Shown in pieces: positions 4,650-41,641 of a DNA stretch of 41,641 bases (its first letter is position 1; each line of letters opens with the position of its first letter). Below the pieces are notes generated by a model. It saw only the letters and a program-made list of their open reading frames with translations, was not told the DNA's origin and did not search any database. The DNA lies in NCBI GenBank assembly GCA_964581965.1, contig CAZOPU010000003.1, forward strand, positions 1 to 41,641, given 5' to 3'. This DNA comes from an uncultured Methanosarcinales archaeon (GTDB lineage Archaea; Nanobdellota; Nanobdellia; Woesearchaeales; 21-14-0-10-32-9). A program made the position numbers and the translations under genes.

Positions 4650-4898
4650 ATGGACGAGTATCTTCAGCCAACCACAAGAAATATTCTGAAGTGGGGAGCA
4701 ATAATGCTTTGCCTGCTTCTCGCATTAACAGCCATTCTTGCTATACTTGGTTCTGGAGGAGAAAATAAGGAAACATTTCTGAAGCTGTTCTTTTATATGT
4801 CCCCATTTGCAGCTGCACTGGTTGTTATTCCGACAGCGATAACATTAATAGTTACAAAGTTGCATTACAGAAATATGAAAAAAAAAGAAAATAAATAA
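4650..4898 (+). CDS. Small hypothetical membrane protein (2 predicted TM helices)
   Basis: ATG-started 82-aa ORF. It has two hydrophobic stretches (WGAIMLCLLLALTAILAILG and FAAALVVIPTAITLIVT) and a basic C-terminus. No recognisable family. Confidence 0.4.
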   Translation: MDEYLQPTTRNILKWGAIMLCLLLALTAILAILGSGGENKETFLKLFFYMSPFAAALVVIPTAITLIVTKLHYRNMKKKENK

Positions 4899-5483
4899 TT
4901 ATTCCTTGAGATATAATTTCTTTATTGTTATGGTTTCTACAGGCCAATCCTGGTAATATGTAAAGTTTCCCGTTTTTACTTTCGCAATCTGGTCCACTAC
5001 ATCCATTCCAACAACTACTTTTCCAAATACAGCATAACCATCATTTCCAGGTCTGTAATTCAAAAATTCATTATCGACAGTATTTATGAAAAACTGGCTT
5101 GTTGCACTATCCGGAACATTAGTTCTAGCCATAGCCACTGTTCCCCTCATGTTCTTAAGCCCGTTATTAGATTCCAGTTTTATAGGGGCCTTGGTTTTCT
5201 TCTGAGTACCATTGTAATAGAATCCCCCTCCCTGTATCATAAAATTAGGGATTACTCTGTGGAATATCAAACCGTCATAATATCCTTCCTTTGTATAATT
5301 AAGGAAATTTTCAGTTGTTATTGGTGCATTCTTTGGGTCTAATTCTATTTCTATTACTCCTTTTGATGTCTCCACCACTACTACGGGATTCTTCATGTTT
5401 TCATCCTCCTTGCTGCATCCAGTCAAGCCAAAGCAAAAAGCAACAAGAGCCATCGAAATCAATATTATCGAAATAAATTTCAT
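4899..5483 (-). CDS. ppiB: Cyclophilin-type peptidyl-prolyl cis-trans isomerase, predicted secreted lipoprotein
   Basis: Cyclophilin signature [16 protein letters not shown]-terminal signal peptide with lipobox LTGC. SD GAGGTG lies 7 nt upstream of the ATG. Confidence 0.9.
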
Positions 5484-5562
5484 ATAAACACCTCATTTTG
5501 CTTGATGCTTTTAGTCTAATCTGCAAATGCTCTTCTATATTTATACTAAAAGCAGTCAACCC

Positions 5563-6255
5563 CTAATAGATGTTGGAATTCCTTAGTGAGTTTATATGTT
5601 TTTTTATTCCTTCAACATGACCTGCACCCACTATGGCCATCACTTTAGAATCTGGATTCCCTTTCATAAGCAAGTATATCTTCCTCGCCATGAACCTGTT
5701 TCTGTCCTCTAGAAGAACATTGTAAAACCCAGGATACCTGTCTTTCATCTGGTTCATTAATTCCAGTATTAGTTGGTCTTCGGGAATCTTTCTTATGTCT
5801 ATTTTTATCCTTTTCTTTTTGGAGAAAGGCGCAGAAAATATGTCCAGAACTATTCTTAGTTTTTCCCTTAGCTTTACTTTTTTGCTTAGGTTCCTAAGGG
5901 TAATTGATGCATCCTGATCTATAAGCTCCATCCTTATTTTGTTATTTTTTGCAAGGGTTACACCAAGGAGCATATCTTCGCCAGGATTCATCCCTGCAAG
6001 ATTTCCTAATTTCTTCTGCAATGCCTTTCCTACTATTGCAAAAATAAATCCTGTTATTCCCAATCTTCTTATGGATGGCGCTCCTTTTGCTTTGTCTGGA
6101 TTCATAAGAGCGTAAAGTCTTCCCCTATCTAGCTCAACGCATATTACGTCAGGTCTGAACTGGGAAAATTCCTTTTTTATTCTTTCCTTTGATTCTTTGG
6201 ATATGTGGCTCGTTCCTACAATTGTTAAATTTTGCTCATTTATCATGTTAATCAT
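5563..6255 (-). CDS. TraB/PrgY/GumN-family protein
   Basis: Family motifs IVGTSHISKES...PDVICVELDRGR and VGAGHVEGI. The ORF track starts at a TTG (6258); the first ATG is at 6255. Confidence 0.8.
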   Translation of the reverse strand: MINMINEQNLTIVGTSHISKESKERIKKEFSQFRPDVICVELDRGRLYALMNPDKAKGAPSIRRLGITGFIFAIVGKALQKKLGNLAGMNPGEDMLLGVTLAKNNKIRMELIDQDASITLRNLSKKVKLREKLRIVLDIFSAPFSKKKRIKIDIRKIPEDQLILELMNQMKDRYPGFYNVLLEDRNRFMARKIYLLMKGNPDSKVMAIVGAGHVEGIKKHINSLRNSNIY

Positions 6256-30018: not shown

Positions 30019-32046
30019 TTATATTTTGCTTACAAATCCTGGCTTTGGACTGAACAAGTCTCCGGCACGTTTTAATTTATCTATTACCTCTGCTGCTTTT
30101 TCATCTGAGACATCCCTTACTCCTGCCTCCCTTATAACATCCTCGATAGGGATTATTTTTCCAAAATTCTTCTCCAATTCATTTATAACTTCCTTTACAA
30201 CAGCTATTGCTCCCCTCTGTGAAGAAGTTATTCCTGTTGCAATTCTGTCAATGTCAAATTTGCCTGTCTCTGCGTCCATTCCAATTAATGAAAGACAATG
30301 ATGAAGCAAATCTATGGCTCTTTGCGCATCTTTCTTTGTGACTGTATGAGAAAGCCTTGTTCTTGCAGAAGCTTCTGCCAGTCTTATTAATCCCTCCAGC
30401 TGACGGGCGCTTATAGGTATGCTTTGAATTTTATCCTCAGGATTGCCTGAGTTTCTCATGCTTACAAAATAATTTTTTATCTCGTTTAATGCCTGGTCTG
30501 TCAATTTTGGAAAGACTGATTGCTTTGCGTAGCCAACATACTTCTTTATCATCACAGTTTCAAATCTGGCAGGTCCTTCTGTTCCTGAGCTTTCCTCCTT
30601 GTGCAGTTTTAGGATAAATGAAGCTAGTTTTTCATCCCTCTCCGCATTTGGCAAATCCTTGACAGGAAAAATAAGATCAAATCTATTTATCAATGTAGAT
30701 GGCAATTCTATTTGCTTTGCCAATATTTCATATGGATCGAATCTTCCGAACTTAGGATTGGCTGCAGCTAAAACTGTAGTTTCAGACCTTAGTGTTGCTT
30801 GTATGTTAGCTTTGCTTATAGATATTGTCTGCTGCTCCAGTGCTTCATGCATTGCAGATGTGTCTTCTTTTGTCATCTTGTCTAACTCATCTATACATAC
30901 CAAACCTTTGTTTGCAAGAACCAATGCTCCTGCTTCTAACGCCCAACCTTTAAGGAATTCGTCTTTTACGACTGCAGCAGTTAGGCCAGCCCCAGATGCA
31001 CCTTTTCCTGAAACAAACCTTGATTTTGGAGCCACAAGAGACATTCTTTTAAGCAACTGGGACTTTCCGCTTCCAGGATCTCCCACAAGTAGTATGTGTA
31101 TATCTCCTCTTCTTTGAACTCCGTCACTTTGTTTTTTCTTGCACCCTCCAAACAACTGAAGTACAAGAGCCTCTTTTATTCTTTCATGCCCATAAACAGT
31201 AGGCGCAATTGAGTCTATAAGCTTCTCGTATATGACTGGGTCTTTTGACATTTGCATAAGCTCTTCTTTTTCCTCGGGAGACAATACAAGCGAAGTAAAC
31301 TCCTCCTGGACAGGCTCTATGTAATTTGCATCTATCATAAGGTCAAATCTTGTCGAAATACCCCCTGAGGCGAGCACTATCGGTATTTCCTTAAGGACAC
31401 CAATTACAATTATTTTGCTTCCGGGATTCGTTTTTTTATCTGAAAGAGGACTTACAAGGTCATTCTTTAGGAAAACATTTATCCTCTTTGGCTGCTCTCC
31501 TCCGTCAAGATCCTCGCTGGCTTCCTCTAGAACTATTTTTTGAGCATCCACAAGCTCTTTTGATATAAGATGAAACTTCCCTTTCCTTCCGCAACTGCAA
31601 GATGATGGCTCCTTGAACTTTGTGTCCACTTGTATTATTGAAATTATATTGCCGCAACTAGGGCATTCAAACCTCGCACTAGTAACTTGAGGTCTTACAT
31701 CGCTCTTTTGCCTTACTATTCCTTGAAATTGGTAAAATTTGTTTATGTTCTTGCTTCTTATGTTGCTTATTAATATCCTAGACGAGTCTGGAAGATTTTT
31801 GAGTCTTACATTTATTGAAATTCCCTCAACTCCCAAGTCAAATTTTGATATAGCGTATTCTGCAGCCTTTATTGCATCTTCTGGTCTTTCTAAGATTTCC
31901 TCTGCTAAATTTAGGTCGAATTTAGAAAGCTCGGAGAAGTCTATTGATATTGATTCCTCACCCTTTGCAGCCTTGTCAAGGAGCTCAGATTTATGACTCG
32001 TTTCAAAGAAATCCTGAAATTTAGATATTTGCTCCTGTGCATCCAT
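30019..32046 (-). CDS. mcm: MCM replicative helicase
   Basis: Zinc motif CPSCGN...CSCG. Walker A LLVGDPGSGKSQLL. Walker B CIDELDKM. Arg finger NRFDLIF. Sensor 2 SARQLEGLIRLAEA. C-terminal winged helix. No intein. Confidence 0.95.
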   Translation of the reverse strand: MDAQEQISKFQDFFETSHKSELLDKAAKGEESISIDFSELSKFDLNLAEEILERPEDAIKAAEYAISKFDLGVEGISINVRLKNLPDSSRILISNIRSKNINKFYQFQGIVRQKSDVRPQVTSARFECPSCGNIISIIQVDTKFKEPSSCSCGRKGKFHLISKELVDAQKIVLEEASEDLDGGEQPKRINVFLKNDLVSPLSDKKTNPGSKIIVIGVLKEIPIVLASGGISTRFDLMIDANYIEPVQEEFTSLVLSPEEKEELMQMSKDPVIYEKLIDSIAPTVYGHERIKEALVLQLFGGCKKKQSDGVQRRGDIHILLVGDPGSGKSQLLKRMSLVAPKSRFVSGKGASGAGLTAAVVKDEFLKGWALEAGALVLANKGLVCIDELDKMTKEDTSAMHEALEQQTISISKANIQATLRSETTVLAAANPKFGRFDPYEILAKQIELPSTLINRFDLIFPVKDLPNAERDEKLASFILKLHKEESSGTEGPARFETVMIKKYVGYAKQSVFPKLTDQALNEIKNYFVSMRNSGNPEDKIQSIPISARQLEGLIRLAEASARTRLSHTVTKKDAQRAIDLLHHCLSLIGMDAETGKFDIDRIATGITSSQRGAIAVVKEVINELEKNFGKIIPIEDVIREAGVRDVSDEKAAEVIDKLKRAGDLFSPKPGFVSKI

Positions 32047-32118: not shown

Positions 32119-32733
32119 TTAGTTCTTGCCTTTGACTTTGTTGAGGTTAATCAAGAGCATATCGATTGCCTTGTGAACCATTTCTTCCGACTTGGTTCCT
32201 GTACAGACTATTTTTCCGTTGCTGAATAATAAGAATGTAGCCTTGGCTTCCATTAACTTATATACCAAGCCTGGAAACTGCTCTGGCTCGTATTCTGTAT
32301 TGTCTAGCTTCATAGCCAAAGTGTTAAGATTCAAGTCCATGCCTATGCTTCCGCTAGCTACTATGTTTTGAACGTTTATTTTTGGTTTTATCTTTATTTT
32401 TATTCCTATTTTCTCTAGGCTTTCAATAATCTTTTTTATGCTCTCATCTACCTTTTCTAGGCTTCTTGCTCCTGTACAAACTATGTTTCCTGAACTGAAT
32501 ATAAGTGCAGATGTTTTAGGATCCTTTATTCTTATAACCAGACCTGGAAATTGCTCAGGGTTGTACTCAGTGTTGCTAAGAGTAGCAGCCATTTTCTCCA
32601 GAGGAATATCATGCTCCAAGCTAGAAGAAACAACTATATTAACGACAGTTATATTTTTATGCGGATCAAAATCAGATTGCTTAGGTTCAGCTTTCTTTTT
32701 TTGGACAGTTTTCATTGCTGGTTTAGATGCCAT
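32119..32733 (-). CDS. tbp: TATA-box binding protein (basic N-terminal extension, no acidic tail)
   Basis: Two TBP repeats: NIVVSSSLEHDIPLEKMA...EQFPGLVIRI and NIVASGSIGMDLNLNTLA...EQFPGLVYKL. Confidence 0.95.
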   Translation of the reverse strand: MASKPAMKTVQKKKAEPKQSDFDPHKNITVVNIVVSSSLEHDIPLEKMAATLSNTEYNPEQFPGLVIRIKDPKTSALIFSSGNIVCTGARSLEKVDESIKKIIESLEKIGIKIKIKPKINVQNIVASGSIGMDLNLNTLAMKLDNTEYEPEQFPGLVYKLMEAKATFLLFSNGKIVCTGTKSEEMVHKAIDMLLINLNKVKGKN

Positions 32734-32768
32734 TTTTACCCCCCTTATAATAAAAGTATTACTTTTTA

Positions 32769-32790
32769 TTTATAAAGAAAAGAAGGGGTA
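32769..32790 (+). repeat. Degenerate ORB-like element, opposite orientation to the two below
   Basis: TTTATAAAGAAAAGAAGGGGTA matches 15 of 22 positions of the reverse complement of the conserved element (TTCCATAGGAAATGAAGGGGTG). It keeps GAAA-GAAGGGGT and loses the TTCC half-site. Confidence 0.3.
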
Positions 32791-32851
32791 TTTATAAATG
32801 CTTTTATATTTTAAAAACTATTTCCAAATACTATATTTCAAATATAATATG

Positions 32852-32874
32852 CCCCCTTTATTTCCTATGGAAAT
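32852..32874 (-). repeat. Origin-recognition-box (ORB)-like element, copy a
   Basis: Plus strand reads CCCCCTTTATTTCCTATGGAAAT. It has the dyad ATTTCC-TAT-GGAAAT with a C/G-string at fixed spacing. Confidence 0.6.
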
Positions 32875-32936
32875 ACATGAAATGAGCTAAAACCTACTTA
32901 AAAACCATATTAAGCACTAAACCAGTATACTAAACA

Positions 32937-32958
32937 CACCCCTTCATTTCCTATGGAA
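32937..32958 (-). repeat. Origin-recognition-box (ORB)-like element, copy b
   Basis: Plus strand reads CACCCCTTCATTTCCTATGGAA. It lies 86 bp from copy a and is identical over 17/17 comparable nt to the element at 41625..41641. Confidence 0.6.
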
Positions 32959-33098
32959 CTTCTAAAGAGGACCTCTCAGAGGATACATAAAACAGCAGAT
33001 GACTAAAATTCCCCTGCAAATCGCGAGCATCATTAAGATTAAGTACAATTTGAAAAAAACTGACAAATGTTTTTAAACAAGATTAAGTTCCCATTATC

Positions 33099-33449
33099 AT
33101 GATCGCGACATTCTATGCGCAAGATTATCTTATCTTTCTTGAACCTTCAAAAAAAGAAGCCGAAAGTCTTCTGGAAGGAAAAGTGCTAGAGTCAAATTTG
33201 CTTGAATCAGGAAATAATCTTGGAAAAATTGTGAAGCTATATATACAAAAAAATGAAGGAGTAGATGGAATATCCTCAAAGAATATTCCTTCAGGAAAGG
33301 GATGGGATAATATATTGCAAATACATTTCGTGATGGATTATAATGCATATACCTCTCTTGTACAAAATGGAAAAGTAGGAACTAGAATATCATCGTACAG
33401 CTGCGTGGAAATACTTAACGGAACAGACAGCTACATAGCAAACGATTAA
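33099..33449 (+). CDS. Hypothetical protein (116 aa, no recognisable family)
   Basis: ATG ORF with a TATA-like GTTTTTAAAC centred about 26 nt upstream. No motifs recognised. Confidence 0.45.
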   Translation: MIATFYAQDYLIFLEPSKKEAESLLEGKVLESNLLESGNNLGKIVKLYIQKNEGVDGISSKNIPSGKGWDNILQIHFVMDYNAYTSLVQNGKVGTRISSYSCVEILNGTDSYIAND

Positions 33450-33503: not shown

Positions 33504-33911
33504 ATGAATTATGAAGATATGCTTAATGAAGCCAGGGAAAAACTGCCCCAGACAGTAAAGGCAACTACAAGATTCGAGATACCTAATGTAAGGGGACAAA
33601 TAGAAGGAAACAAAACCATAATAAGCAATTTCTTTCAAATAGCAGATGTCCTTGGAAGAAAGCCCCAGCACCTTTTGAAATACGTTCAAAAGGAATTAGC
33701 AACTCCAGGCGTTATAAAAAAACAAGCAGTCATATTCGGCTCCAAGCTTCCTGCAAGCAAGGTAAATGAAAAAATAAAGACATATGCTGAAGAGTTTGTT
33801 TTTTGCAAGGAATGCAACGGTCCTGATACAAAGATGATAAAAGAAGGTGATGTTTACTATATCACTTGCCAAGTTTGTGGTGCAAAACACAGTTTCTATG
33901 CTAAGATATAA
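33504..33911 (+). CDS. eif2b: Translation initiation factor aIF2 beta subunit
   Basis: eIF2-beta/eIF5 fold: RFEIPNVRGQIEGNKTIISNF...LLKYVQKELAT. C-terminal zinc ribbon CKECNGPDT...CQVCGA. The TATATAAAT box is centred 26 nt upstream of the ATG. Confidence 0.9.
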   Translation: MNYEDMLNEAREKLPQTVKATTRFEIPNVRGQIEGNKTIISNFFQIADVLGRKPQHLLKYVQKELATPGVIKKQAVIFGSKLPASKVNEKIKTYAEEFVFCKECNGPDTKMIKEGDVYYITCQVCGAKHSFYAKI

Positions 33912-33914
33912 TCT

Positions 33915-34472
33915 TCAAGCTGACCGTTTTTCTTTCTCCAGCAGCTTAATTAACTCTTTTGTCTTTATCAAAGATCCTAATATTGTTTTGAAATTCTGAC
34001 AGTTCCTTTTATGCCACGAAGGTTTTTCTGTGGATGATGCATCCGTAACTAAATATGGCTGAATACCCCTCATAGCAGCCCCTGCAGCGCTGAAATAAAC
34101 ACAAACACCTGAATAAACTCCGCAGAAATAAAGCACATCTATTTTCTCCTTTTTGCAGTATTTCTCTAAGTCAGTCCTGAAGAAAGAATCATACTCCTTC
34201 TTCTTGACAAGTTTCGTCCTTTCCGCAGACATAATTGCAGGAACAAGCTCGTTAAGCCCTTTCTCTCCATTTTTCTTAGACTCATCGCCCCAGAGCCTTT
34301 GCATTACAGGATTTATTTTTCCTCTTTCGTCACCCTTAACTATTATAACTGGAAGATTTTGCATTCTAAATTTCTTTATAAGTAATATTTGATTGGCCAA
34401 AATTTCTTTTGGATTATAAGTATCCTTTTTGTAGCTTTTTACCATATCTATTATTATTAATCCTTTTACCAT
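33915..34472 (-). CDS. Isochorismatase-family cysteine hydrolase (nicotinamidase-like)
   Basis: GLIIIDMVKSY (catalytic Asp region), KKKEYDSFF, and the catalytic Cys context FCGVYSGVCVYFSAAGA. Confidence 0.8.
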   Translation of the reverse strand: MVKGLIIIDMVKSYKKDTYNPKEILANQILLIKKFRMQNLPVIIVKGDERGKINPVMQRLWGDESKKNGEKGLNELVPAIMSAERTKLVKKKEYDSFFRTDLEKYCKKEKIDVLYFCGVYSGVCVYFSAAGAAMRGIQPYLVTDASSTEKPSWHKRNCQNFKTILGSLIKTKELIKLLEKEKRSA

Positions 34473-34544: not shown

Positions 34545-35090
34545 TTATCCGTTCTTGTCCAGATACTCCTTTAGTTTTTGTATTGCTTTATACCTGTGAG
34601 ATATCTTGTTTTTCTCTTCAAAAGTCATCTCTGCGAATCTTTTCCTGTATCCGTCGGGAATGAATACTCTGTCAAAGTCAAAGCCATTGTCTCCTTTCAT
34701 TTTTGCAACTTTTCCAGATACTTCTCCTTTGAATATGACTATATCCTCCAGAGAATTGACAAGAGCTATTAAGCAAACAGTTTTTGCTTTCTTGTTTTTA
34801 GTTAAATAAGCTAATTTTTCGTATCCGACGTGTTTTATGAAATCTTTTATATAAGGTCCGGGAAGGCCGTTCCATTCCTCAAAACAAAAGGATGTATCTT
34901 CAACTATGCAACGTTTTTTTAACTTAGTATATGATTGCTTTGCTTTTTCAAGAATCACCTCTTCTGACGAACCTTGTATTTCATGGGTTTCTACAGGAAC
35001 TGAAATTATGTCATAACCGATTAGCAAATCCTGAAATTCCTTTAATTTGTTCCTGTTTCCTGTAGCCAGTATTATTTGCGTAGCGTTCAT
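34545..35090 (-). CDS. Non-canonical purine NTP pyrophosphatase (Ham1/RdgB, dITP/XTPase)
   Basis: ILATGNRNKLKEF...WNGLPGPYIKDF...GFDFDRVFIPDGYRKRFAEMTFEEKNKISHRYKA. Confidence 0.9.
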   Translation of the reverse strand: MNATQIILATGNRNKLKEFQDLLIGYDIISVPVETHEIQGSSEEVILEKAKQSYTKLKKRCIVEDTSFCFEEWNGLPGPYIKDFIKHVGYEKLAYLTKNKKAKTVCLIALVNSLEDIVIFKGEVSGKVAKMKGDNGFDFDRVFIPDGYRKRFAEMTFEEKNKISHRYKAIQKLKEYLDKNG

Positions 35091-35151: not shown

Positions 35152-38100
35152 TTATTCCGCTTCAGCTTCTCCTTCAAACCAATCTTTAAGTCCTTTCTGG
35201 ACTTCCTTTTCTTTTCCGAATACCCCTTCGATTCTTCTCTGTGTTAACTCTATTACTTGTCTGACATATGGATTTACCTGGTATTTTTTTGAAAGAAGAG
35301 TGCTATAATCCATGTATTTTACTATGCTACCTTCGCTTATAGTAAATATTATCTTTCCCCCGCACGCTGTGCATTTTCCTGATAACGGAGGCCTCCTAAA
35401 CTTTTCGTTGCAATTAACACACCTGAATTCCTGTGTTGAAAACTTTCTCAGGTTTCCTTTTGTGTCCCTTATGAAATGTTTTTCTATTATAAGTCTTGCA
35501 ACATCAGTCTGGTCTACAGCTCTTATTTTTACTGCTATGTCCATCTGGGCATCTACTTTTTCTCCCATGCTTGGAAGTATCTTGTAAGATGAGCAAAGTA
35601 CTCCTGCATTAAAATTTGTAGTATCATGAGTAAATCCAAAGTTTTCATATTGAGCTTCTGTTCCTATTACCTGTCCAACTCTTTTTATTGGAATATCATA
35701 TGGCATTTTAAGCTGCTCTGCAGCTCTGTATAATGATAAAGGATAGCTATTAACAATATCCATGTTAAATACCATATCGTCCACTTCTGCAGGAATTAAT
35801 ATTGTAGTCAAAACCAAGGGTGCATCCATTGTACTTCCTCTTGAGCTTGGAAGGAAGAGTTTTGAAAAATTAAGAAAAGCGTCAAGTGCAAGAAGGATGC
35901 ATGATTCGTCTCCATCGCAATCCCTTCTCATTGCTGCATGGACATAGGGCGTTGCAAAGAATCCTTGGGTTTTCGAGAATCCTATTATTCTTATTATTAT
36001 TCCTGCAGATGTATGCGGGGCCAAGCCTATAGCTATATGTCCAACAAGATCTTGTTTTGATTTTAAGTTATAAAAAGGCTTTAGTCCATATAGTTTTTCT
36101 AGCTCTTCATCTATGAAATTAGCTGCCCTAAAAAATACTTCATCCGCAGGTTCATCCGGAGAGACCGGACAGCAAGGAATCACGACGTCCTGCACTTTCA
36201 GTTCTAGGATTTGATCTTCTCTTTCCAACGGCAAGCCATATATATCCTGCTCGTATCCAAGTTCTATTAGTTTTTCTATTGGGACGTTTATTTCTTTGGG
36301 CTTAAAGTGGGTCAGTGGCACCTCTGAGCAATCATATCTTATTGTGCCATCTTTGTTTACTGACAGGTTATATTTAGCTCTTAACATTCCCTTTATCAAA
36401 TGCTCTGCAATCTTTTCTTTGCTTGCCAGTCCCCTTACTCCTTTTATCAGGTCAGGAATTATTTTAGTATCCATTCTTTTCTTTAACGAGTCCATTATCT
36501 TGTCTATGTTTATTTCTACTTTTTTGGACTTTTCATACGGATTCTTTTTCTCTCCTTCCTGTATTATTTCTGTTTTTGAATTGCATAATTCACAAACCCT
36601 GAAAGGAGTTGTATTATTACATTTTTTACATTTAAACAATTGCAAGTCAGTCACTATTTTTCTTGCTTCCATTGCTGATTGAAAGCTCCTCAGCCTTCCT
36701 CCTTGTTCACCTACTGGAAACATAGCGTGAGGGCTACCTGTTAGTTTTCTCATCTTAGCTTTTTCAGGACGCCCCATTCTAGCTCCTATGAATGTTCCCG
36801 ACTTGTCTCTTATCTTGACTCCTGAAAGGGCCGTCAGTATATCTGTTATCTTTGTATTGTTTTCAAATATCGAAAATGATTCTTCTTCTGACTTGTCAGG
36901 GCCTAGTGTAAATAAAAGCGCCTGTGCATGATCTTTTTCAACCACAACAAATTCTTTCTGGACTTCCTTGTGCGGCACTCCAATTAATTCCAAGCTTCTT
37001 TTTTGCGGTTTGAGTCTTATTATTAATTTGTCTGATTCGTATTTTCCGGACAAAACCCAATTTCGCAGCTCAAAAAGCTCGTTTTTTGATATTGCTGTCC
37101 AATAATATGTATATATTGGGTGGAGAGGTATTTCCATTCTCTCTGATATTTGCTTTGCTGCTTCAAAGCTCATTTTTGTCATGAGTGGTTTCTTTAAAAG
37201 AATTCTTAATTTAGAAGGGGAAATATTTAGCAAGTCACTTATTTTTTCTTCATCTATTGTCCAAAATAGTTTAACTGATGATTCTTCAAGTTCTTTTATC
37301 CAGACTTCTTGGCAGTAACCTGATGGAACTAATTTGTGGGCTCTGTCAAAAAAATCTCCATAGTTTATTAAAACATCCCCCAAATAAAGTATTTCTTCAA
37401 CATCATCCCTGTATTGTTTTGCTTCCGCCTCTGTCTCTATAATTATAACCTCTCCTGATTTCAGCTTTATTATAGGACCATCTATCGTATCGCAGCAAGT
37501 AAATGCTGCAGCTTTCCCAGGTCTTTCTACTTTAAGCTGTGTTCCTGTAGCTACAAAATTATTTGTTAGTATCATTGATGCTGGATGTATTGCTTGGGCT
37601 GAAAATCCCGACGTTCTAGCTCGGCCATATCTCAACCTGAATCCCCCGTGTTTCATTGGATGTCCCAGAACCGGCCTTCCTCCTACAAGATCCGTTATGT
37701 ATGTAAAGTCCGGAGACAGACCTTCAGCTGATTTTTTGGCAGACTTTGATTTGTTTTTTGTCTGAATTTTTACAAATTCCTCCATAAAAGACCAGTGCAT
37801 CATATTCATTTCATTTCCCCATTTTGAAAGTTTAGCCCAGAGTTTAGGTCCTTTAAGTGGAATGCACGAACTATGAATAAGGCAGTATCCGCTTCGCAGG
37901 TTGTTTGTGGGTATTCTTGGCAAATCCCTAAGTAATGCACTTGACAATTCATTTTTTTCTGAAGGATCTCCAGATATTTCTACAGGCAGATGACTCATTA
38001 AAAACTCGACTTCTTCCTTTGATGGAAAATATTGCAAGTTCGTTACATATTCATGATAATCTTCTAACTCAGCATAGCATCTATGAATTTCTTTTTCGGT

Positions 38101-38655
38101 CGGGTCATATTCTGAGTAGCCCATGTTTTTTCTTACATAATCTGCAATTAAAACAGACACTGCTGCAGCAGTTCCTCCAGCAGCCCTTATTGGCCCCGCG
38201 TAATTTAAGCAGAAATATTTTCCTTTTCCATCCAATCTGTCCTTTAACTCGAGCGATGTAAATCCCTCAAGGGGAGCAGATACAACCCCTAAAGTCATGT
38301 ATGCAAACCCCGTCCTTATTCCTACTTCCATCGCTTCTTTTTCATCTTTGAATTTACAGAATTTTTCTTGTGCTATTTCCAAGGATATTTGCAACGCTAC
38401 CCTCCAATCCAAAGGAGAATATTTTTTTTCCAACTCTATTATGCGCTCTATGGCTTTTGATTCCAGAAGTTGAGGAGCTATTGCCGATATTAATCCTATT
38501 ACTCTTTCTGCTAAATTTTCTGCTAGCTTAACTTCCACAATATCTTGAGGATCATAGCCTTTCTTTCTTGCTTCCACAGCTATATTATATTGTTTTAATG
38601 ATTTTTGGCTTAATTCATCGAAGTATTTTTGTGTTTTTTTTGATGCTACAGTCAT
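35152..38655 (-). CDS. dp2: DNA polymerase II (PolD) large catalytic subunit DP2
   Basis: 1167 aa. Conserved N-terminus YFDELSQKSLKQYNIAVEARKKGYDP. Internal and C-terminal Cys clusters CKKCNN...CELCNS and CVNCNEKFRRPPLSGKCTACGGK. Lies directly downstream of DP1. No intein. Confidence 0.95.
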   Translation of the reverse strand: MTVASKKTQKYFDELSQKSLKQYNIAVEARKKGYDPQDIVEVKLAENLAERVIGLISAIAPQLLESKAIERIIELEKKYSPLDWRVALQISLEIAQEKFCKFKDEKEAMEVGIRTGFAYMTLGVVSAPLEGFTSLELKDRLDGKGKYFCLNYAGPIRAAGGTAAAVSVLIADYVRKNMGYSEYDPTEKEIHRCYAELEDYHEYVTNLQYFPSKEEVEFLMSHLPVEISGDPSEKNELSSALLRDLPRIPTNNLRSGYCLIHSSCIPLKGPKLWAKLSKWGNEMNMMHWSFMEEFVKIQTKNKSKSAKKSAEGLSPDFTYITDLVGGRPVLGHPMKHGGFRLRYGRARTSGFSAQAIHPASMILTNNFVATGTQLKVERPGKAAAFTCCDTIDGPIIKLKSGEVIIIETEAEAKQYRDDVEEILYLGDVLINYGDFFDRAHKLVPSGYCQEVWIKELEESSVKLFWTIDEEKISDLLNISPSKLRILLKKPLMTKMSFEAAKQISERMEIPLHPIYTYYWTAISKNELFELRNWVLSGKYESDKLIIRLKPQKRSLELIGVPHKEVQKEFVVVEKDHAQALLFTLGPDKSEEESFSIFENNTKITDILTALSGVKIRDKSGTFIGARMGRPEKAKMRKLTGSPHAMFPVGEQGGRLRSFQSAMEARKIVTDLQLFKCKKCNNTTPFRVCELCNSKTEIIQEGEKKNPYEKSKKVEINIDKIMDSLKKRMDTKIIPDLIKGVRGLASKEKIAEHLIKGMLRAKYNLSVNKDGTIRYDCSEVPLTHFKPKEINVPIEKLIELGYEQDIYGLPLEREDQILELKVQDVVIPCCPVSPDEPADEVFFRAANFIDEELEKLYGLKPFYNLKSKQDLVGHIAIGLAPHTSAGIIIRIIGFSKTQGFFATPYVHAAMRRDCDGDESCILLALDAFLNFSKLFLPSSRGSTMDAPLVLTTILIPAEVDDMVFNMDIVNSYPLSLYRAAEQLKMPYDIPIKRVGQVIGTEAQYENFGFTHDTTNFNAGVLCSSYKILPSMGEKVDAQMDIAVKIRAVDQTDVARLIIEKHFIRDTKGNLRKFSTQEFRCVNCNEKFRRPPLSGKCTACGGKIIFTISEGSIVKYMDYSTLLSKKYQVNPYVRQVIELTQRRIEGVFGKEKEVQKGLKDWFEGEAEAE

Positions 38656-38671: not shown

Positions 38672-40207
38672 TTATTTCATTTCCGCCATTTCCCTTACTT
38701 GCTTTGTTGCTTCTTCTTCTTTTTCCTTTGATTTTTTTGAAAGGAAATTCATTATTTTTACTTCTCTTGTTCTAAGGTTTATAATGGGGACCCTCGCGGG
38801 CAGTGGCTCTAGTCCTCTTTTTATCTGGTCTTCTGTTGTTTCTGTCCAGCAAGATGCATTTATCGTGGTTACATTCCTGTATTTCCCTGTTGTGGATCTG
38901 TGTATGTGTCCTGTAACAAATATATCAGGTATTATATCTATAACAAGAAAATCTTGCTCCCCATCAGGAAGATAGAGTGTTGAGCCATGTGTTGGCGCTA
39001 GATGTCTTTTCTGAAGCAAAAAAGACAGTATCAAGTCTGATCTTTTCTGTCCTCCCGCCTCTCTTATGAACGGAACGTTTTCTGCATAGTATATTAGTGA
39101 TCCCCCATGATAAAGTAGCAAGTCAAAGCCAGGAAAATCTTCGGTTGATGCTATATTTACATATGCTGGATTTGATACTAGAGTTACATTTGGCATTTCC
39201 CATAGCGCGGAAGCATAATCTCTGAAGGGTACTTCTTGCGGCTCAGATAGTCTTCCTGCATCATGGTTTCCAGACATAAGAATTAATTTTATGTGTTGGG
39301 GAATTTGCTTTAACCATTTCGCTGCCTCGTTGTATTGTTGCGTTATGTCCATAATTTTTAAGTCCCCTTCCTGTCCTGGATATATTCCTACCCCTTCCAC
39401 AATATCTCCTGTTAAAACAACATACTTCACTTTTCCAGCTATTTTTTTTTGCTCTTCATTTCCCAAATTTCCTCTTATCCATTGTATAAATTTTGAAAAT
39501 TCTTCTTCCATGAATACATTAGATCCGAAGTGCGTGTCTCCCATAAAAACAACATATTCCTCCTCTTTTTGTTTCTTCATTTCTTTGTTTAAAGGAATAT
39601 CTGGGAATATTATTTTATCTGCAAAAACTGCCGTATTAAGCCAAGATCCTGTTACACCTATAACTTCATCCAGAACTATGTTATTGGCTAGATTGAATGT
39701 TTCTTTGTTATTTTCATCTTGGCGCACAATTACTGTGCATACTCCTGTGGAATCTTCGAGTTTTAGAACGATGTTGTTGTTTTTTGTGGTTGATTTTTCA
39801 AGCACCATACCTATTACTGCGACTTTATCATTGTTTATTTTTGAATTTATTCTAGATATTGCTGTAACTCCTTGCAGCTCTTTTCTGTTTCTAAGAAATT
39901 GTGATAATGTTTTGAACCTAAGGTTGAACACCGAAACAAAATCTTGGAATGTCCTTTTTTTCGGGGGCCTGTCATACGACTTTAATATTTTTACAACAGA
40001 TGTTTTTTCATTTGTCTCATTTTTACTGTTTTTTGTTTGTTTTGAAGAAATGAATTTGTTTATTAAATCAGCATCCAGAAAGTCCAAATCGTCTTTATAT
40101 GTGTTGTATATTTCTTCCAAAATTTTTTCTTCTATTTCCATCAATAGGACTTCAGGACTTACTAATATTCCTTTATCTATCATATTTTTAATTGTTTGGG
40201 ATTCCAT
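38672..40207 (-). CDS. dp1: DNA polymerase II (PolD) small subunit DP1 (Mre11-like phosphoesterase/exonuclease)
   Basis: Calcineurin-like motifs VFMGDTHFGS, LTGDIVEG, MSGNHDA and VTGHIH. The track start (40282) is a TTG deep inside orc1/cdc6. ATG 40207 gives MESQTIKNMIDKGILVSPEVLL and still overlaps the cdc6 3' end by 20 nt. Confidence 0.9.
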   Translation of the reverse strand: MESQTIKNMIDKGILVSPEVLLMEIEEKILEEIYNTYKDDLDFLDADLINKFISSKQTKNSKNETNEKTSVVKILKSYDRPPKKRTFQDFVSVFNLRFKTLSQFLRNRKELQGVTAISRINSKINNDKVAVIGMVLEKSTTKNNNIVLKLEDSTGVCTVIVRQDENNKETFNLANNIVLDEVIGVTGSWLNTAVFADKIIFPDIPLNKEMKKQKEEEYVVFMGDTHFGSNVFMEEEFSKFIQWIRGNLGNEEQKKIAGKVKYVVLTGDIVEGVGIYPGQEGDLKIMDITQQYNEAAKWLKQIPQHIKLILMSGNHDAGRLSEPQEVPFRDYASALWEMPNVTLVSNPAYVNIASTEDFPGFDLLLYHGGSLIYYAENVPFIREAGGQKRSDLILSFLLQKRHLAPTHGSTLYLPDGEQDFLVIDIIPDIFVTGHIHRSTTGKYRNVTTINASCWTETTEDQIKRGLEPLPARVPIINLRTREVKIMNFLSKKSKEKEEEATKQVREMAEMK

Positions 40208-41468
40208 CTTCTTTCTCTTCCTCTTCCAAGACTCTCGCTTCCCTTCTCGATGATGAACCGTTAAGTTCCAGTTCTTCTTCAAGTATTAATAATATTTTTC
40301 TTTCTATTGATGAGGATAGAGAAATGTTTATTTCTCTTGTTCTTCCGAATCTTCCTTTGCTTATTATTTTTGTGTTTATTATTCCAAGCATATCTAATTC
40401 GCCAATTATATCGGAAACCCTTCTTTGTGTCAGAGGTCTCAGGCCGCTTTTATTGCATATTGATTTGTATAACTCATATACATCTCCTGTTAGTATGTTT
40501 GTTTTTTTATTTTGGCTTAATATAAGAATAGGATATAGTGTTGCTTGGAATTGTTTGGGGTGTGTTTTTACCATATCTATTAATCTGTCCCTCTCTATCT
40601 TGTCCTCTGCTTCATCTATGTCTTCTATCTTTACTGTTTCCCTGTTTTTTCTTTCTGCCAGCTCTCCTGCAACTCTGAGCAATTCAAGCGCCCTTCTCGC
40701 ATCACCGTGCTCTCTTGCAGCATATGCTGCACATTTTTGGATAACTCCATCATCTATTGCGCCAGGCTTGAATGCCCTAACAGCTCTTTCTTTTAGGATA
40801 TCTTGAATTTGAACTGCATTATATGGTGGAAAAAGAATTTCCTCCTCACTTAAACTGCTTTTCACTCTAGCATCTAGATTGTTTGCAAACATTAAATCAT
40901 TTGATATTCCTATTATTGATAATTGTGATTTTTTTAGTTCTGAGTTTATTCTTAGAAGATTATATATTATTTCATCTCCTGCTTTCTTGACTAATTCGTC
41001 CATTTCATCAAGTATTAATATTGTTATTTTTTCTTCCTGATCCAAAGCCCTGAAGAAAATGTTGTATACTTCATCTGTTGGAAGTCCTGTTGGAGGAACT
41101 GCTTTTCCGAAAAATCTTGCTAATTCCGCTATTAATCTGTATTCTGTATCTGCTATTTTTTTAAGTTTGCAATTAAGATAGAATATTTGTACAGATAATC
41201 CTTTTTCCTTGGATATGTTTTCCATTTGCTCCGCTACATACTTCACAACTAATGTTTTTCCCGTTCCGGACTTCCCATAAACAAACAAATTAGATGGTTT
41301 TTCTCCTTTTAGTGCTGGAGAAAGTATTTGTGCAACTTGATTTATCTGATCATCTCTATGACTTATTTCTCCGGGTATGAAAGATGACTGCAAAACTTTT
41401 TTGTTATTAAATATTGTTTCTTTTTTTAGGAATGTTTCAAAGAAGTTATTTAGGTTGTTTTTTATCAT
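40188..41468 (-). CDS. cdc6: Orc1/Cdc6 replication initiator
   Basis: AAA+ Walker A VYGKSGTGKTLVVKYV. Walker B LILDEMDEL. Sensor region GISND. C-terminal winged helix ...LTQRRVSDIIGELDMLGII. Confidence 0.95.
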   Translation of the reverse strand: MIKNNLNNFFETFLKKETIFNNKKVLQSSFIPGEISHRDDQINQVAQILSPALKGEKPSNLFVYGKSGTGKTLVVKYVAEQMENISKEKGLSVQIFYLNCKLKKIADTEYRLIAELARFFGKAVPPTGLPTDEVYNIFFRALDQEEKITILILDEMDELVKKAGDEIIYNLLRINSELKKSQLSIIGISNDLMFANNLDARVKSSLSEEEILFPPYNAVQIQDILKERAVRAFKPGAIDDGVIQKCAAYAAREHGDARRALELLRVAGELAERKNRETVKIEDIDEAEDKIERDRLIDMVKTHPKQFQATLYPILILSQNKKTNILTGDVYELYKSICNKSGLRPLTQRRVSDIIGELDMLGIINTKIISKGRFGRTREINISLSSSIERKILLILEEELELNGSSSRREARVLEEEEKEDGIPNN

Positions 41469-41472
41469 AAAA

Positions 41473-41493
41473 TTCCAGAAGAAATGAAGGTTA
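41473..41493 (+). repeat. ORB-like element (slightly degenerate) between the cdc6 TATA box and its start codon
   Basis: TTCCAGAAGAAATGAAGGTTA compared with the reverse complement of the conserved copy, TTCCATAGGAAATGAAGGGGT: 17 of 21 identical. It starts 5 nt upstream of the cdc6 ATG. Confidence 0.45.
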
Positions 41494-41500
41494 TATAAAT
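41491..41500 (-). promoter_or_regulatory. TATA box for orc1/cdc6 (leaderless spacing)
   Basis: Minus strand reads ATTTATATAA, centred about 27 nt upstream of the ATG at 41468. Confidence 0.45.
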
Positions 41501-41624
41501 GTTCTTCTTTTGAAAAATAACCTATTTTTTGTTTGTTTATTAAAGCTGTTTTTATGAGTATTATGTTGTAAATGTTCTTTTATTATAGGTCTTATATAAA
41601 ATGCATTTTGTTATATCTATAACT
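41494..41624. other. AT-rich putative duplex-unwinding element of oriC
   Basis: 131 bp containing 25 G/C (19% GC by hand count). It is bracketed by inverted ORB-like elements. It contains the direct repeat TAAATGTTCTT at 41496..41506 and 41569..41579. Confidence 0.4.
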
Positions 41625-41641
41625 CACCCCTTCATTTCCTA
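41625..41641 (-). repeat. ORB-like element, truncated by the right window edge
   Basis: CACCCCTTCATTTCCTA is identical to the first 17 nt of copy b at 32937..32958. Confidence 0.6.

Follow-up and report, generated by a model that had tools for sequence, protein, structure and literature searches.

Initiator sites outside the replication origin are familiar from bacteria, where DnaA boxes occur in promoters, as in dnaA autoregulation and at the nrd genes, and also at the datA titration locus. For archaea, the textbook origin is an AT-rich region between inverted ORBs that adjoins the initiator gene (PMC4010727), and at Sulfolobus oriC1 both inverted ORBs are individually needed for origin activity (PMC12141716). 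The way in which such a box is read has been revealed by solved Orc1-DNA complexes, in which the winged-helix domain sits on the dyad and the AAA+ ISM on the G-tract (PMC9738581). Two described systems depart from this picture. The Thermococcales carry a second ORB cluster within dp1, the gene for the PolD small subunit, at a distance of about 1.5 kb from oriC, an organization conserved throughout the order (PMC1904270), and in Sulfolobus the Orc1-2 protein acts as a global regulator of transcription, inducing tfb3 and repressing orc1-1 and orc1-3 (PMC9738581). Here, we describe a pair of ORBs upstream of the tbp and mcm genes of an uncultured archaeon and show how this locus compares with these systems.

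The window, by which we mean the whole 41.6-kb stretch of DNA that was analysed, is an archaeal region of about 35% GC. Among 120 listed Cdc6 homologues (66-93% identity), those with a source name come nearly all from Candidatus Woesearchaeota, Nanoarchaeia or Nanoarchaeota, and on this protein similarity the source organism is a Woesearchaeote (DPANN). The genes of interest, for which Pfam matches bear out the original prediction's calls of MCM, TBP, aIF2-beta, the large and small PolD subunits and Cdc6, are the following:

30019-32046, minus strand: mcm (Pfam MCM), 72 nt downstream of tbp and on the same strand
32119-32733, minus strand: tbp, the gene for the TATA-binding protein (Pfam TBP, E=4.7e-60)
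33099-33449, plus strand: ORF116 (116 aa), without a Pfam match
33504-33911, plus strand: aIF2-beta (Pfam)
33915-34472, minus strand: isochorismatase-family gene (Pfam)
34545-35090, minus strand: Ham1-family gene (Pfam)
35152-38655, minus strand: PolD large subunit (Pfam)
38672-40282, minus strand: PolD small subunit (Pfam)
40188-41468, minus strand: orc1/cdc6 initiator gene (Pfam Cdc6_lid, Cdc6_C and AAA domains)

The tbp and mcm genes are probably co-transcribed. They are adjacent in 63 of 69 relatives, with the mcm start no more than 300 nt from the tbp stop on the same strand, and the boxes described below can therefore not be assigned to one gene over the other, the unit being tbp-mcm. 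A separation of the two genes that was seen at some loci turned out to be an artefact of BLAST segments. An Rfam search at a permissive threshold returned no non-coding RNA between 32000 and 34000. Upstream of tbp, in the 365-bp spacer that separates it from ORF116 (32734-33098), lie these elements:

32853..32872, minus strand: ORB a, the proximal box, an exact core match; plus strand CCCCTTTATTTCCTATGGAA, tbp strand TTCCATAGGAAATAAAGGGG
32939..32958, minus strand: ORB b, the distal box, an exact core match; plus strand CCCCTTCATTTCCTATGGAA, tbp strand TTCCATAGGAAATGAAGGGG
32873..32938, no strand: inter-box spacer, 66 bp, 28.8% GC
32791..32804, minus strand: putative tbp core promoter, AAAGCATTTATAAA, BRE plus TATA box
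32768..32777, minus strand: second TATA-like box, CTTTATAAAT, downstream of the first

That two same-orientation copies of the element lie 86 bp apart (start to start) in this spacer was the starting claim of the original prediction, and it holds: both boxes have perfect 20-nt cores and lie on the same strand, where shuffles of the window lead one to expect 0.01 perfect cores. On the tbp strand, each reads TTCCATAGGAAAT(A/G)AAGGGG, that is, a TTCCA...GGAAA dyad and then a G-string, and both copies thus have the TTCCA-N3-GGAAA dyad and one-sided G-string that mark an ORB. Their polarity is also shared, the dyad pointing away from tbp and the G-string facing it, with the G-string of ORB a ending 48 nt from the tbp BRE/TATA. 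Between them, a GTATACTGG element at 32922-32930 is kept in the closest clade, and the inter-box spacer is no unwinding element. The reported identity of copy b (32937-32958) to a copy at the right edge of the window (41625-41641), 8,688 bp away, was confirmed over 17 of 17 nt and extends to 23 of 23 nt when the inner oriC ORB is read past the window edge in a public contig. Both boxes thus look like genuine ORBs and are predicted Orc1/Cdc6 sites.

The identity of the motif itself was established by scanning a species-representative genome collection for CCCCTTNRTTTCYYWTGGAA, which returned at least 120 blocks. Most of the matches listed are archaeal, and cdc6 lies close to the match in about half of all blocks; the lineages represented among the matches listed include Methanotrichaceae, Methanomassiliicoccales, Bathyarchaeia, Aenigmatarchaeota, Pacearchaeota and Woesearchaeota. 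As the 20-nt core adjoins cdc6 in dozens of archaeal lineages from many phyla among these matches, the motif is the pan-archaeal ORB. Three contexts recur among the matches listed, namely the cdc6 promoter, the region upstream of tbp-mcm (several cases in Woesearchaeota: L039, L059, L061, L098 and L089) and the inside of a coiled-coil/HTH_11 gene (at least 13 matches listed), all other contexts being single cases. The ORB in the HTH gene encodes the peptide SIGNEGV, all members of this gene having been picked by the motif scan itself. About 20 of the matches listed are bacterial, a number consistent with chance. Isolated ORB matches in other DPANN bins gave no coherent set of neighbouring genes that would make up a wider regulon; their contexts include an asparagine-synthase-like gene adjoining a family B DNA polymerase gene, a glycogen-debranching enzyme, RNase P p30 and HTH genes.

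To place the tbp boxes among close relatives, four loci (L003-L006) were retrieved via their Cdc6 proteins, and all four have cdc6, polD, aIF2-beta, tbp and mcm as neighbours. In the three whose Cdc6 is 79-89% identical (L003, L004 and L005), two boxes lie upstream of tbp in the same orientation and exactly 86 bp apart, with 112-120 bp between the end of the proximal box and the tbp ATG, and in L006 (Cdc6 71% identical) no box was found upstream of tbp. ORB b occupies the same place in L127-L129 and others as well. An alignment of the four box-bearing spacers, with the window sequence entered as its identical-Cdc6 contig L001 alongside L003-L005, contains four invariant blocks: box b, the block GTATACT.GT directly after the box b G-string, box a, and, some 60 nt ahead of the tbp ATG, TAT.AAAG.ATTTATAAA, which we take to be the BRE/TATA. 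The gene upstream of tbp varies among relatives in both identity and strand. Within genomes, the evidence for co-variation between the tbp boxes and the oriC boxes was mixed.

A protein-guided scan of metagenome contigs widened the sample to 80 tbp loci (TBP 73-97% identical), of which a dereplicated set of 69 with at least 400 bp upstream of tbp was analysed, a box being counted when it had no more than 2 mismatches in 15 core positions and lay 100-700 bp upstream of the TBP core anchor. At least one box is present upstream of tbp in 45 of the 69 loci, about a third of the relatives having no recognisable box, and the orientation is almost uniform, with 59 sites directing the G-string towards tbp and a single one directing it away. 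The remaining 675 kb of these loci, origins included, hold only 5 sites, which amounts to an enrichment of about 200-fold upstream of tbp. Short TTCC...GGAA dyads are common, and a chance resemblance or a generic dispersed repeat might be suspected for this reason, but this enrichment, the two perfect cores where 0.01 were expected and the lack of any further perfect copy elsewhere in the 41.6-kb window make that explanation negligible. The original prediction had itself named two observations that would count against it, occurrence of the motif as a generic repeat and loss of the tbp-side copies where the cdc6-side copies persist; neither was borne out, the motif being no such repeat and the tbp-side copies being kept at least as well as the cdc6-side ones.

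The position of the boxes is constrained as well. Where two boxes are present, they are spaced by 83-86 bp in 19 of 24 pairs. Between the G-string end of the proximal box and AAAGYATTTATAAA, the spacing falls into discrete classes: of 49 loci, 29 have 44-49 nt (mode 47) and a further 12 have 31-35 nt (the 33-nt class). Within the 47-nt class, represented by 22 distinct sequences, the length of this spacer is held and its sequence drifts (53% mean identity, minimum 32%), alongside 78% mean identity for the box and a near-invariant BRE/TATA block (95% mean pairwise identity, 22 distinct loci). The boxes thus have the fixed position and orientation relative to the BRE/TATA that would be looked for in an operator. 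The second TATA-like box recurs in relatives as well, some 20-25 nt past the first.

The tbp boxes can be set against the origin of the same organism, which lies at the right edge of the window and was completed from L001 (GCA_030154545.1), a public contig with an identical Cdc6 that extends 1.8 kb beyond the window end. The relevant features are as follows:

41625..41641, plus strand: inner oriC ORB, clipped by the window end
L001 1217-1236, plus strand: oriC ORB
L001 1237-1646: oriC AT-rich region
L001 1647-1666, minus strand: inverted oriC ORB
41473..41492, minus strand: ORB-like box, AACCTTCATTTCTTCTGGAA, flanked by the cdc6 TATA box (about 41493-41503) and the ATG of cdc6

The ORB at L001 1647-1666 is the copy that the window end clips, on the cdc6 side of oriC. 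Between it and its inverted partner, just upstream of cdc6, lies an AT-rich zone of 410 bp with 13.4% GC, towards which the dyads of both ORBs are directed, their G-strings pointing outward. As judged from this canonical structure, the true oriC is at the right edge of the window.

Few of these properties are found at tbp. One of the readings offered by the original prediction was that a second origin, independent of oriC though only 8.7 kb away and served by the same Orc1/Cdc6, is formed by the tbp boxes, and two perfect ORBs, a 61-bp stretch of 13% GC adjoining copy a and the occurrence of multiple origins in some archaea (PMC4010727) speak in its favour. However, the two boxes share one polarity, as do those of the relatives at 59 to 1, whereas Sulfolobus oriC1 needs each of its inverted ORBs (PMC12141716), and no plus-orientation ORB site recurs upstream of tbp in the relatives. 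An inverted partner had been proposed in the form of a degenerate copy at 32769..32790 (plus strand), but with 3 mismatches in 15 core positions this is a chance-level match, the window holding 4 sites as good where 2.4 are expected with no more than 3 core mismatches. It was rejected as an ORB, as it also overlaps the second tbp TATA box and is not kept in any close relative. The 61-bp stretch with 13% GC is real, but it contains the putative tbp BRE/TATA and represents the tbp promoter region, its low GC is not consistently kept in relatives, and it adjoins copy a on the G-string side, opposite to the dyad side on which the organism's own oriC has its AT-rich region. On that dyad side, the tbp boxes have no AT-rich unwinding element, GC there being 28-37% (n=50) as against 16-26% over 300 bp or more at cdc6 origins (n=24). 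Nor is an initiator gene adjacent, the neighbours being tbp and the 116-aa ORF, with cdc6 8.7 kb off. Lacking an inverted ORB, an AT-rich zone for unwinding and an initiator gene next to it, the tbp-side cluster is, on its sequence organization, not a canonical origin, and we consider a second origin here highly improbable. GC skew in the window tracks gene strand only, at a scale that cannot resolve 8.7 kb. The switch in gene strand at tbp, to which attention had been drawn, is present in the window but incidental, as the gene upstream of tbp is co-directional with it in L004 and L005.

What the boxes do follow becomes apparent when loci with different gene orders are compared. At least four arrangements of tbp-mcm relative to cdc6 occur, and the boxes stay upstream of tbp-mcm in all of them:

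Arrangement A, this window: cdc6>polD> ... <aIF2b [boxes] tbp>mcm>
Arrangement B, the commonest: [boxes] tbp>mcm> ... aIF2b> <polD <cdc6
Arrangement C, e.g. L196 and L197: [boxes] tbp>mcm> [oriC] cdc6>polD>
Arrangement D, L149: [box] tbp, preceded at 5 kb by a pair of inverted ORBs within 950 bp of non-coding DNA next to RNase P p30

Across these arrangements, the distance (5-11 kb) and orientation of the tbp boxes with respect to oriC vary, and their orientation and spacing with respect to the tbp promoter are constant. By this comparison, the module follows tbp-mcm and not oriC.

This bears directly on another possible role, that of an accessory ORB cluster within an extended origin region which does not itself fire as an origin and which might, for example, titrate or sequester the initiator, form a loop or higher-order complex with oriC, or support staged helicase loading. 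Several observations speak for such a role. In the Thermococcales, Cdc6 binding to the cluster on the far side of cdc6 has been seen both in vivo and in vitro (PMC1904270), and the occurrence of two ORB clusters with a single cdc6, which the original prediction had thought unusual, has its precedent there. The present cluster, too, is conserved and belongs to the neighbourhood of cdc6 and polD, at a distance of a few kb from oriC (8.7 kb in this window). An origin-like ORB cluster is nearly always to be found within about 5-11 kb of tbp-mcm, and within that range of the boxes in every arrangement seen, and related lineages have a perfect ORB inside the HTH gene 1-2 kb from oriC. Among loci that extend 10 kb in both directions, 7 of 8 with a nearby cdc6 and 0 of 3 without have a good box, although these are only 11 loci and phylogenetically non-independent. 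On the other hand, it is the geometry relative to the tbp promoter that is constant and that relative to oriC that varies, and a degenerate box is kept at the 33-nt position in L162, where 10 kb of sequence to each side is free of cdc6, and in L170, where cdc6 is missing from 10 kb upstream and from the 4.6 kb covered downstream. The fixed place relative to oriC and cdc6, inside dp1, is likewise missing: the tbp cluster is intergenic and variable in placement, and the PolD small-subunit gene of the window has no ORB inside it. We regard an accessory cluster as rather unlikely, but as the main rival of the reading given below, and the extended initiation zone that had been suggested survives only in this form, as an accessory Orc1-binding cluster. 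Such a role and that of an operator are not mutually exclusive.

The explanation that best fits the comparative data is one which the original prediction had included, namely that Orc1 acts as a transcription factor at tbp/mcm: the 59:1 polarity, the 47- and 33-nt spacing classes and the movement of the boxes with tbp-mcm all point this way. More precisely, the polarity, the discrete BRE/TATA spacing held despite drift of the spacer sequence, and a pair spacing of about eight turns lead us to propose, with moderate confidence, that the boxes are Orc1/Cdc6 operator sites which couple tbp-mcm transcription to the initiator. From the observed sequences, conservation, polarity and spacing we infer both that Orc1/Cdc6 binds the boxes and that it affects transcription. 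In the mechanism we envisage, each box would be bound by one Orc1/Cdc6 monomer, with the winged-helix domain on the TTCCA...GGAAA dyad and the AAA+ ISM on the promoter-facing G-string. The proximal box lies 47-48 nt upstream of the putative tbp BRE/TATA, at about -95 to -75 from the expected start, and the distal box 84-86 bp further upstream, about eight helical turns away. If occupancy were set by the level or nucleotide state of the initiator, transcription of TBP and of the MCM helicase would be tied to the replication cycle.

An independent line of support for the operator model comes from the ORB at the cdc6 promoter. A box directly downstream of a TATA box is in the classical position to block assembly of the pre-initiation complex, and the ORB that abuts the cdc6 TATA box therefore has a geometry that suggests autorepression. 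The order of TATA, ORB and then ATG is conserved at many DPANN cdc6 loci, and the presence of this ORB in many DPANN lineages suggests that the initiator already acts on transcription there. If this third box, at the cdc6 TATA, serves autorepression, all of the sites together would make up a small circuit with the initiator at its centre.

A number of observations weigh against the operator model. For TFB or TBP to be contacted directly, a site centred near -90 is unusually distant, the two spacing classes differ by 14 nt and hence not by whole helical turns, about a third of the relatives have no recognisable box and no coherent wider regulon emerged, and the location of tbp-mcm near an origin-like cluster would suit a replication-linked accessory role as well. 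Part of the conserved orientation could, moreover, stem from the region upstream of tbp having been inherited as a block. It may also be that the sites are regulatory but are bound by a non-initiator Orc1 paralogue or an unrelated DNA-binding protein. The window is 41.6 kb of a genome whose remainder may encode such a paralogue, divergent Cdc6-like genes (about 30% identity) are present in the related bins L087 and L115, and Sulfolobus Orc1-2 sets the precedent (PMC9738581). Yet the boxes are full canonical ORBs, copy b matching the organism's own oriC box over 23 nt, whereas the Orc1-2 site is a short asymmetric ANTTTC and no ORB (PMC9738581), and we judge a protein other than the initiator to be improbable at these sites.

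ORB elements are already known; what appears to be new is their use as an oriented, promoter-phased module at tbp-mcm across a large DPANN clade. A full-text search found no paper on ORBs in Woesearchaeota, and among literature linking ORBs to TBP, mcm or promoters none was found that describes ORBs upstream of tbp-mcm. Should Orc1/Cdc6 bind these boxes and change tbp-mcm transcription, this would be a case of a bona fide initiator, as opposed to a specialised paralogue, using its origin sequence as a promoter operator, linking replication initiation to the supply of helicase and TBP and giving a concrete answer to how replication and expression may be coordinated in small-genome, regulator-poor DPANN archaea. 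Somewhat more tentatively than for the boxes of this locus, we suggest that the Woesearchaeota Orc1/Cdc6 may double as a transcription factor which, through promoter-phased ORBs, controls cdc6, TBP and MCM; if so, this would be to archaea what the DnaA regulon is to bacteria, and would tie replication licensing directly to the basal transcription machinery. For origin prediction, the lesson is that a perfect ORB pair is insufficient, and that the orientation of the boxes, the presence of an unwinding element and the conservation of the boxes with respect to nearby promoters all have to be checked.

Set beside the described systems, the tbp cluster shares the recognition element of the canonical archaeal oriC (PMC4010727, PMC12141716) but differs from it in its direct boxes, its lack of a conserved unwinding element and the lack of an adjacent initiator gene. 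It resembles the dp1 cluster of the Thermococcales (PMC1904270) as a second ORB cluster near oriC in the cdc6-polD neighbourhood of an organism with a single visible cdc6/orc1, in an organization that is widely conserved (across an order there, in many Woesearchaeota here) and in which the cluster itself is no initiation site (here as judged from its sequence organization). That cluster, however, lies inside a coding region and its binding by Cdc6 was demonstrated by ChIP and gel shift (PMC1904270), whereas the tbp cluster, known from its sequence, is intergenic, 5-11 kb from oriC, fixed relative to a promoter and moves with its operon. With Orc1-2 of Sulfolobus islandicus it would have in common an Orc1-family protein at the promoters of a general transcription factor gene and of initiator genes. 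Orc1-2 is a non-initiator paralogue that uses the short asymmetric ANTTTC element in the DNA-damage response (PMC9738581), unlike the present case, in which the boxes are full canonical ORBs as at the origin and the sole Orc1/Cdc6 visible in the 41.6-kb window is origin-adjacent. Finally, although the protein family and domain of life are different and the likeness is one of analogy only, the bacterial DnaA boxes and datA offer the same picture of initiator sites outside the origin that couple expression, or the availability of the initiator, to replication.

At cdc6, a TATA box is followed directly by an ORB-like box (resembling the origin recognition box, the predicted Orc1/Cdc6 site) and then by the start codon, giving the order ATTTATATAA-CCTTCATTTCTTCTGGAA-ttttATG, and this layout is conserved at many cdc6 loci of Woesearchaeota and other DPANN archaea. 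The geometry of the box, placed between TATA box and ATG, suggests autorepression of the promoter by the initiator. This promoter and two elements upstream of tbp are located as follows:

41473-41503: cdc6 core promoter with ORB-like box (1789-1824 in L001, a public contig with an identical Cdc6)
32768-32804: tandem TTTATAAA boxes upstream of tbp
32922-32930: GTATACT(G/A)G element, ~6-10 nt past the distal tbp ORB's G-string

The right end of the window (41625-41641) falls in the middle of an ORB of oriC, the cdc6-adjacent origin, a break that may reflect assembly fragmentation at repeated or AT-rich sequence. Only L001 (1217-1646) shows the AT-rich zone of this origin (410 bp, 13.4% GC) and its outer ORB.

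At tbp, many relatives (e.g. L144 and L178) carry two to four tandem TTTATAAA boxes, ~20-25 nt apart, ahead of the gene, through which TBP could regulate its own expression. The GTATACT(G/A)G element, recorded in the window and at L003, L004, L005, L127-L129, L137 and L098, does not vary within the closest clade and also occurs at some more distant loci; it may be either part of an extended ORB or the site of a second factor.

ORBs also adjoin other genes. In a Candidatus Methanoperedens bin (L067, 5371-5628), an ORB lies ~75 nt upstream of mcm, its G-string facing the gene as at the tbp boxes, and a TTCCAGTGGAA mini-ORB lies another 160 bp upstream; given this pair, the association between ORBs and mcm may extend beyond DPANN. 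At L149 (~4873-5825), a 950-bp non-coding stretch with an inverted ORB pair lies 5 kb upstream of tbp and next to an RNase P p30 gene, and no cdc6 was found within the 10 kb sampled; the pair may represent an origin away from its initiator gene. An ORB adjoins p30 at L099 too.

Among the matches listed, a coiled-coil/HTH_11 gene found in Pacearchaeota and Woesearchaeota contains a perfect, in-frame ORB, TTCCATAGGAAATGAAGGGG, which encodes the peptide SIGNEGV and is followed by PTDRQT repeats. All members were picked by the ORB motif scan, and constraint on the box may lie in the DNA or in the peptide:

L040, L047, L051, L057, L064, L073, L079, L091, L097, L101, L104, L114, L118: ORB-containing HTH_11 gene
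L010, L026, L063, L087, L121: also with this gene

At L010, L026 and L063, an origin-like inverted ORB pair lies 1-2 kb from it.

The PolD large subunit of the close relative L005 (12731-17539) holds an intein carrying a LAGLIDADG endonuclease, and measures 1602 aa versus 1167 aa in the window. The gene for aIF2-beta (window 33504-33911) is constant in the cdc6-polD-tbp-mcm island, across all arrangements seen among relatives, which extends the mcm/aIF2-beta linkage that Berthon et al. 2008 (PMC2643942) pointed out.
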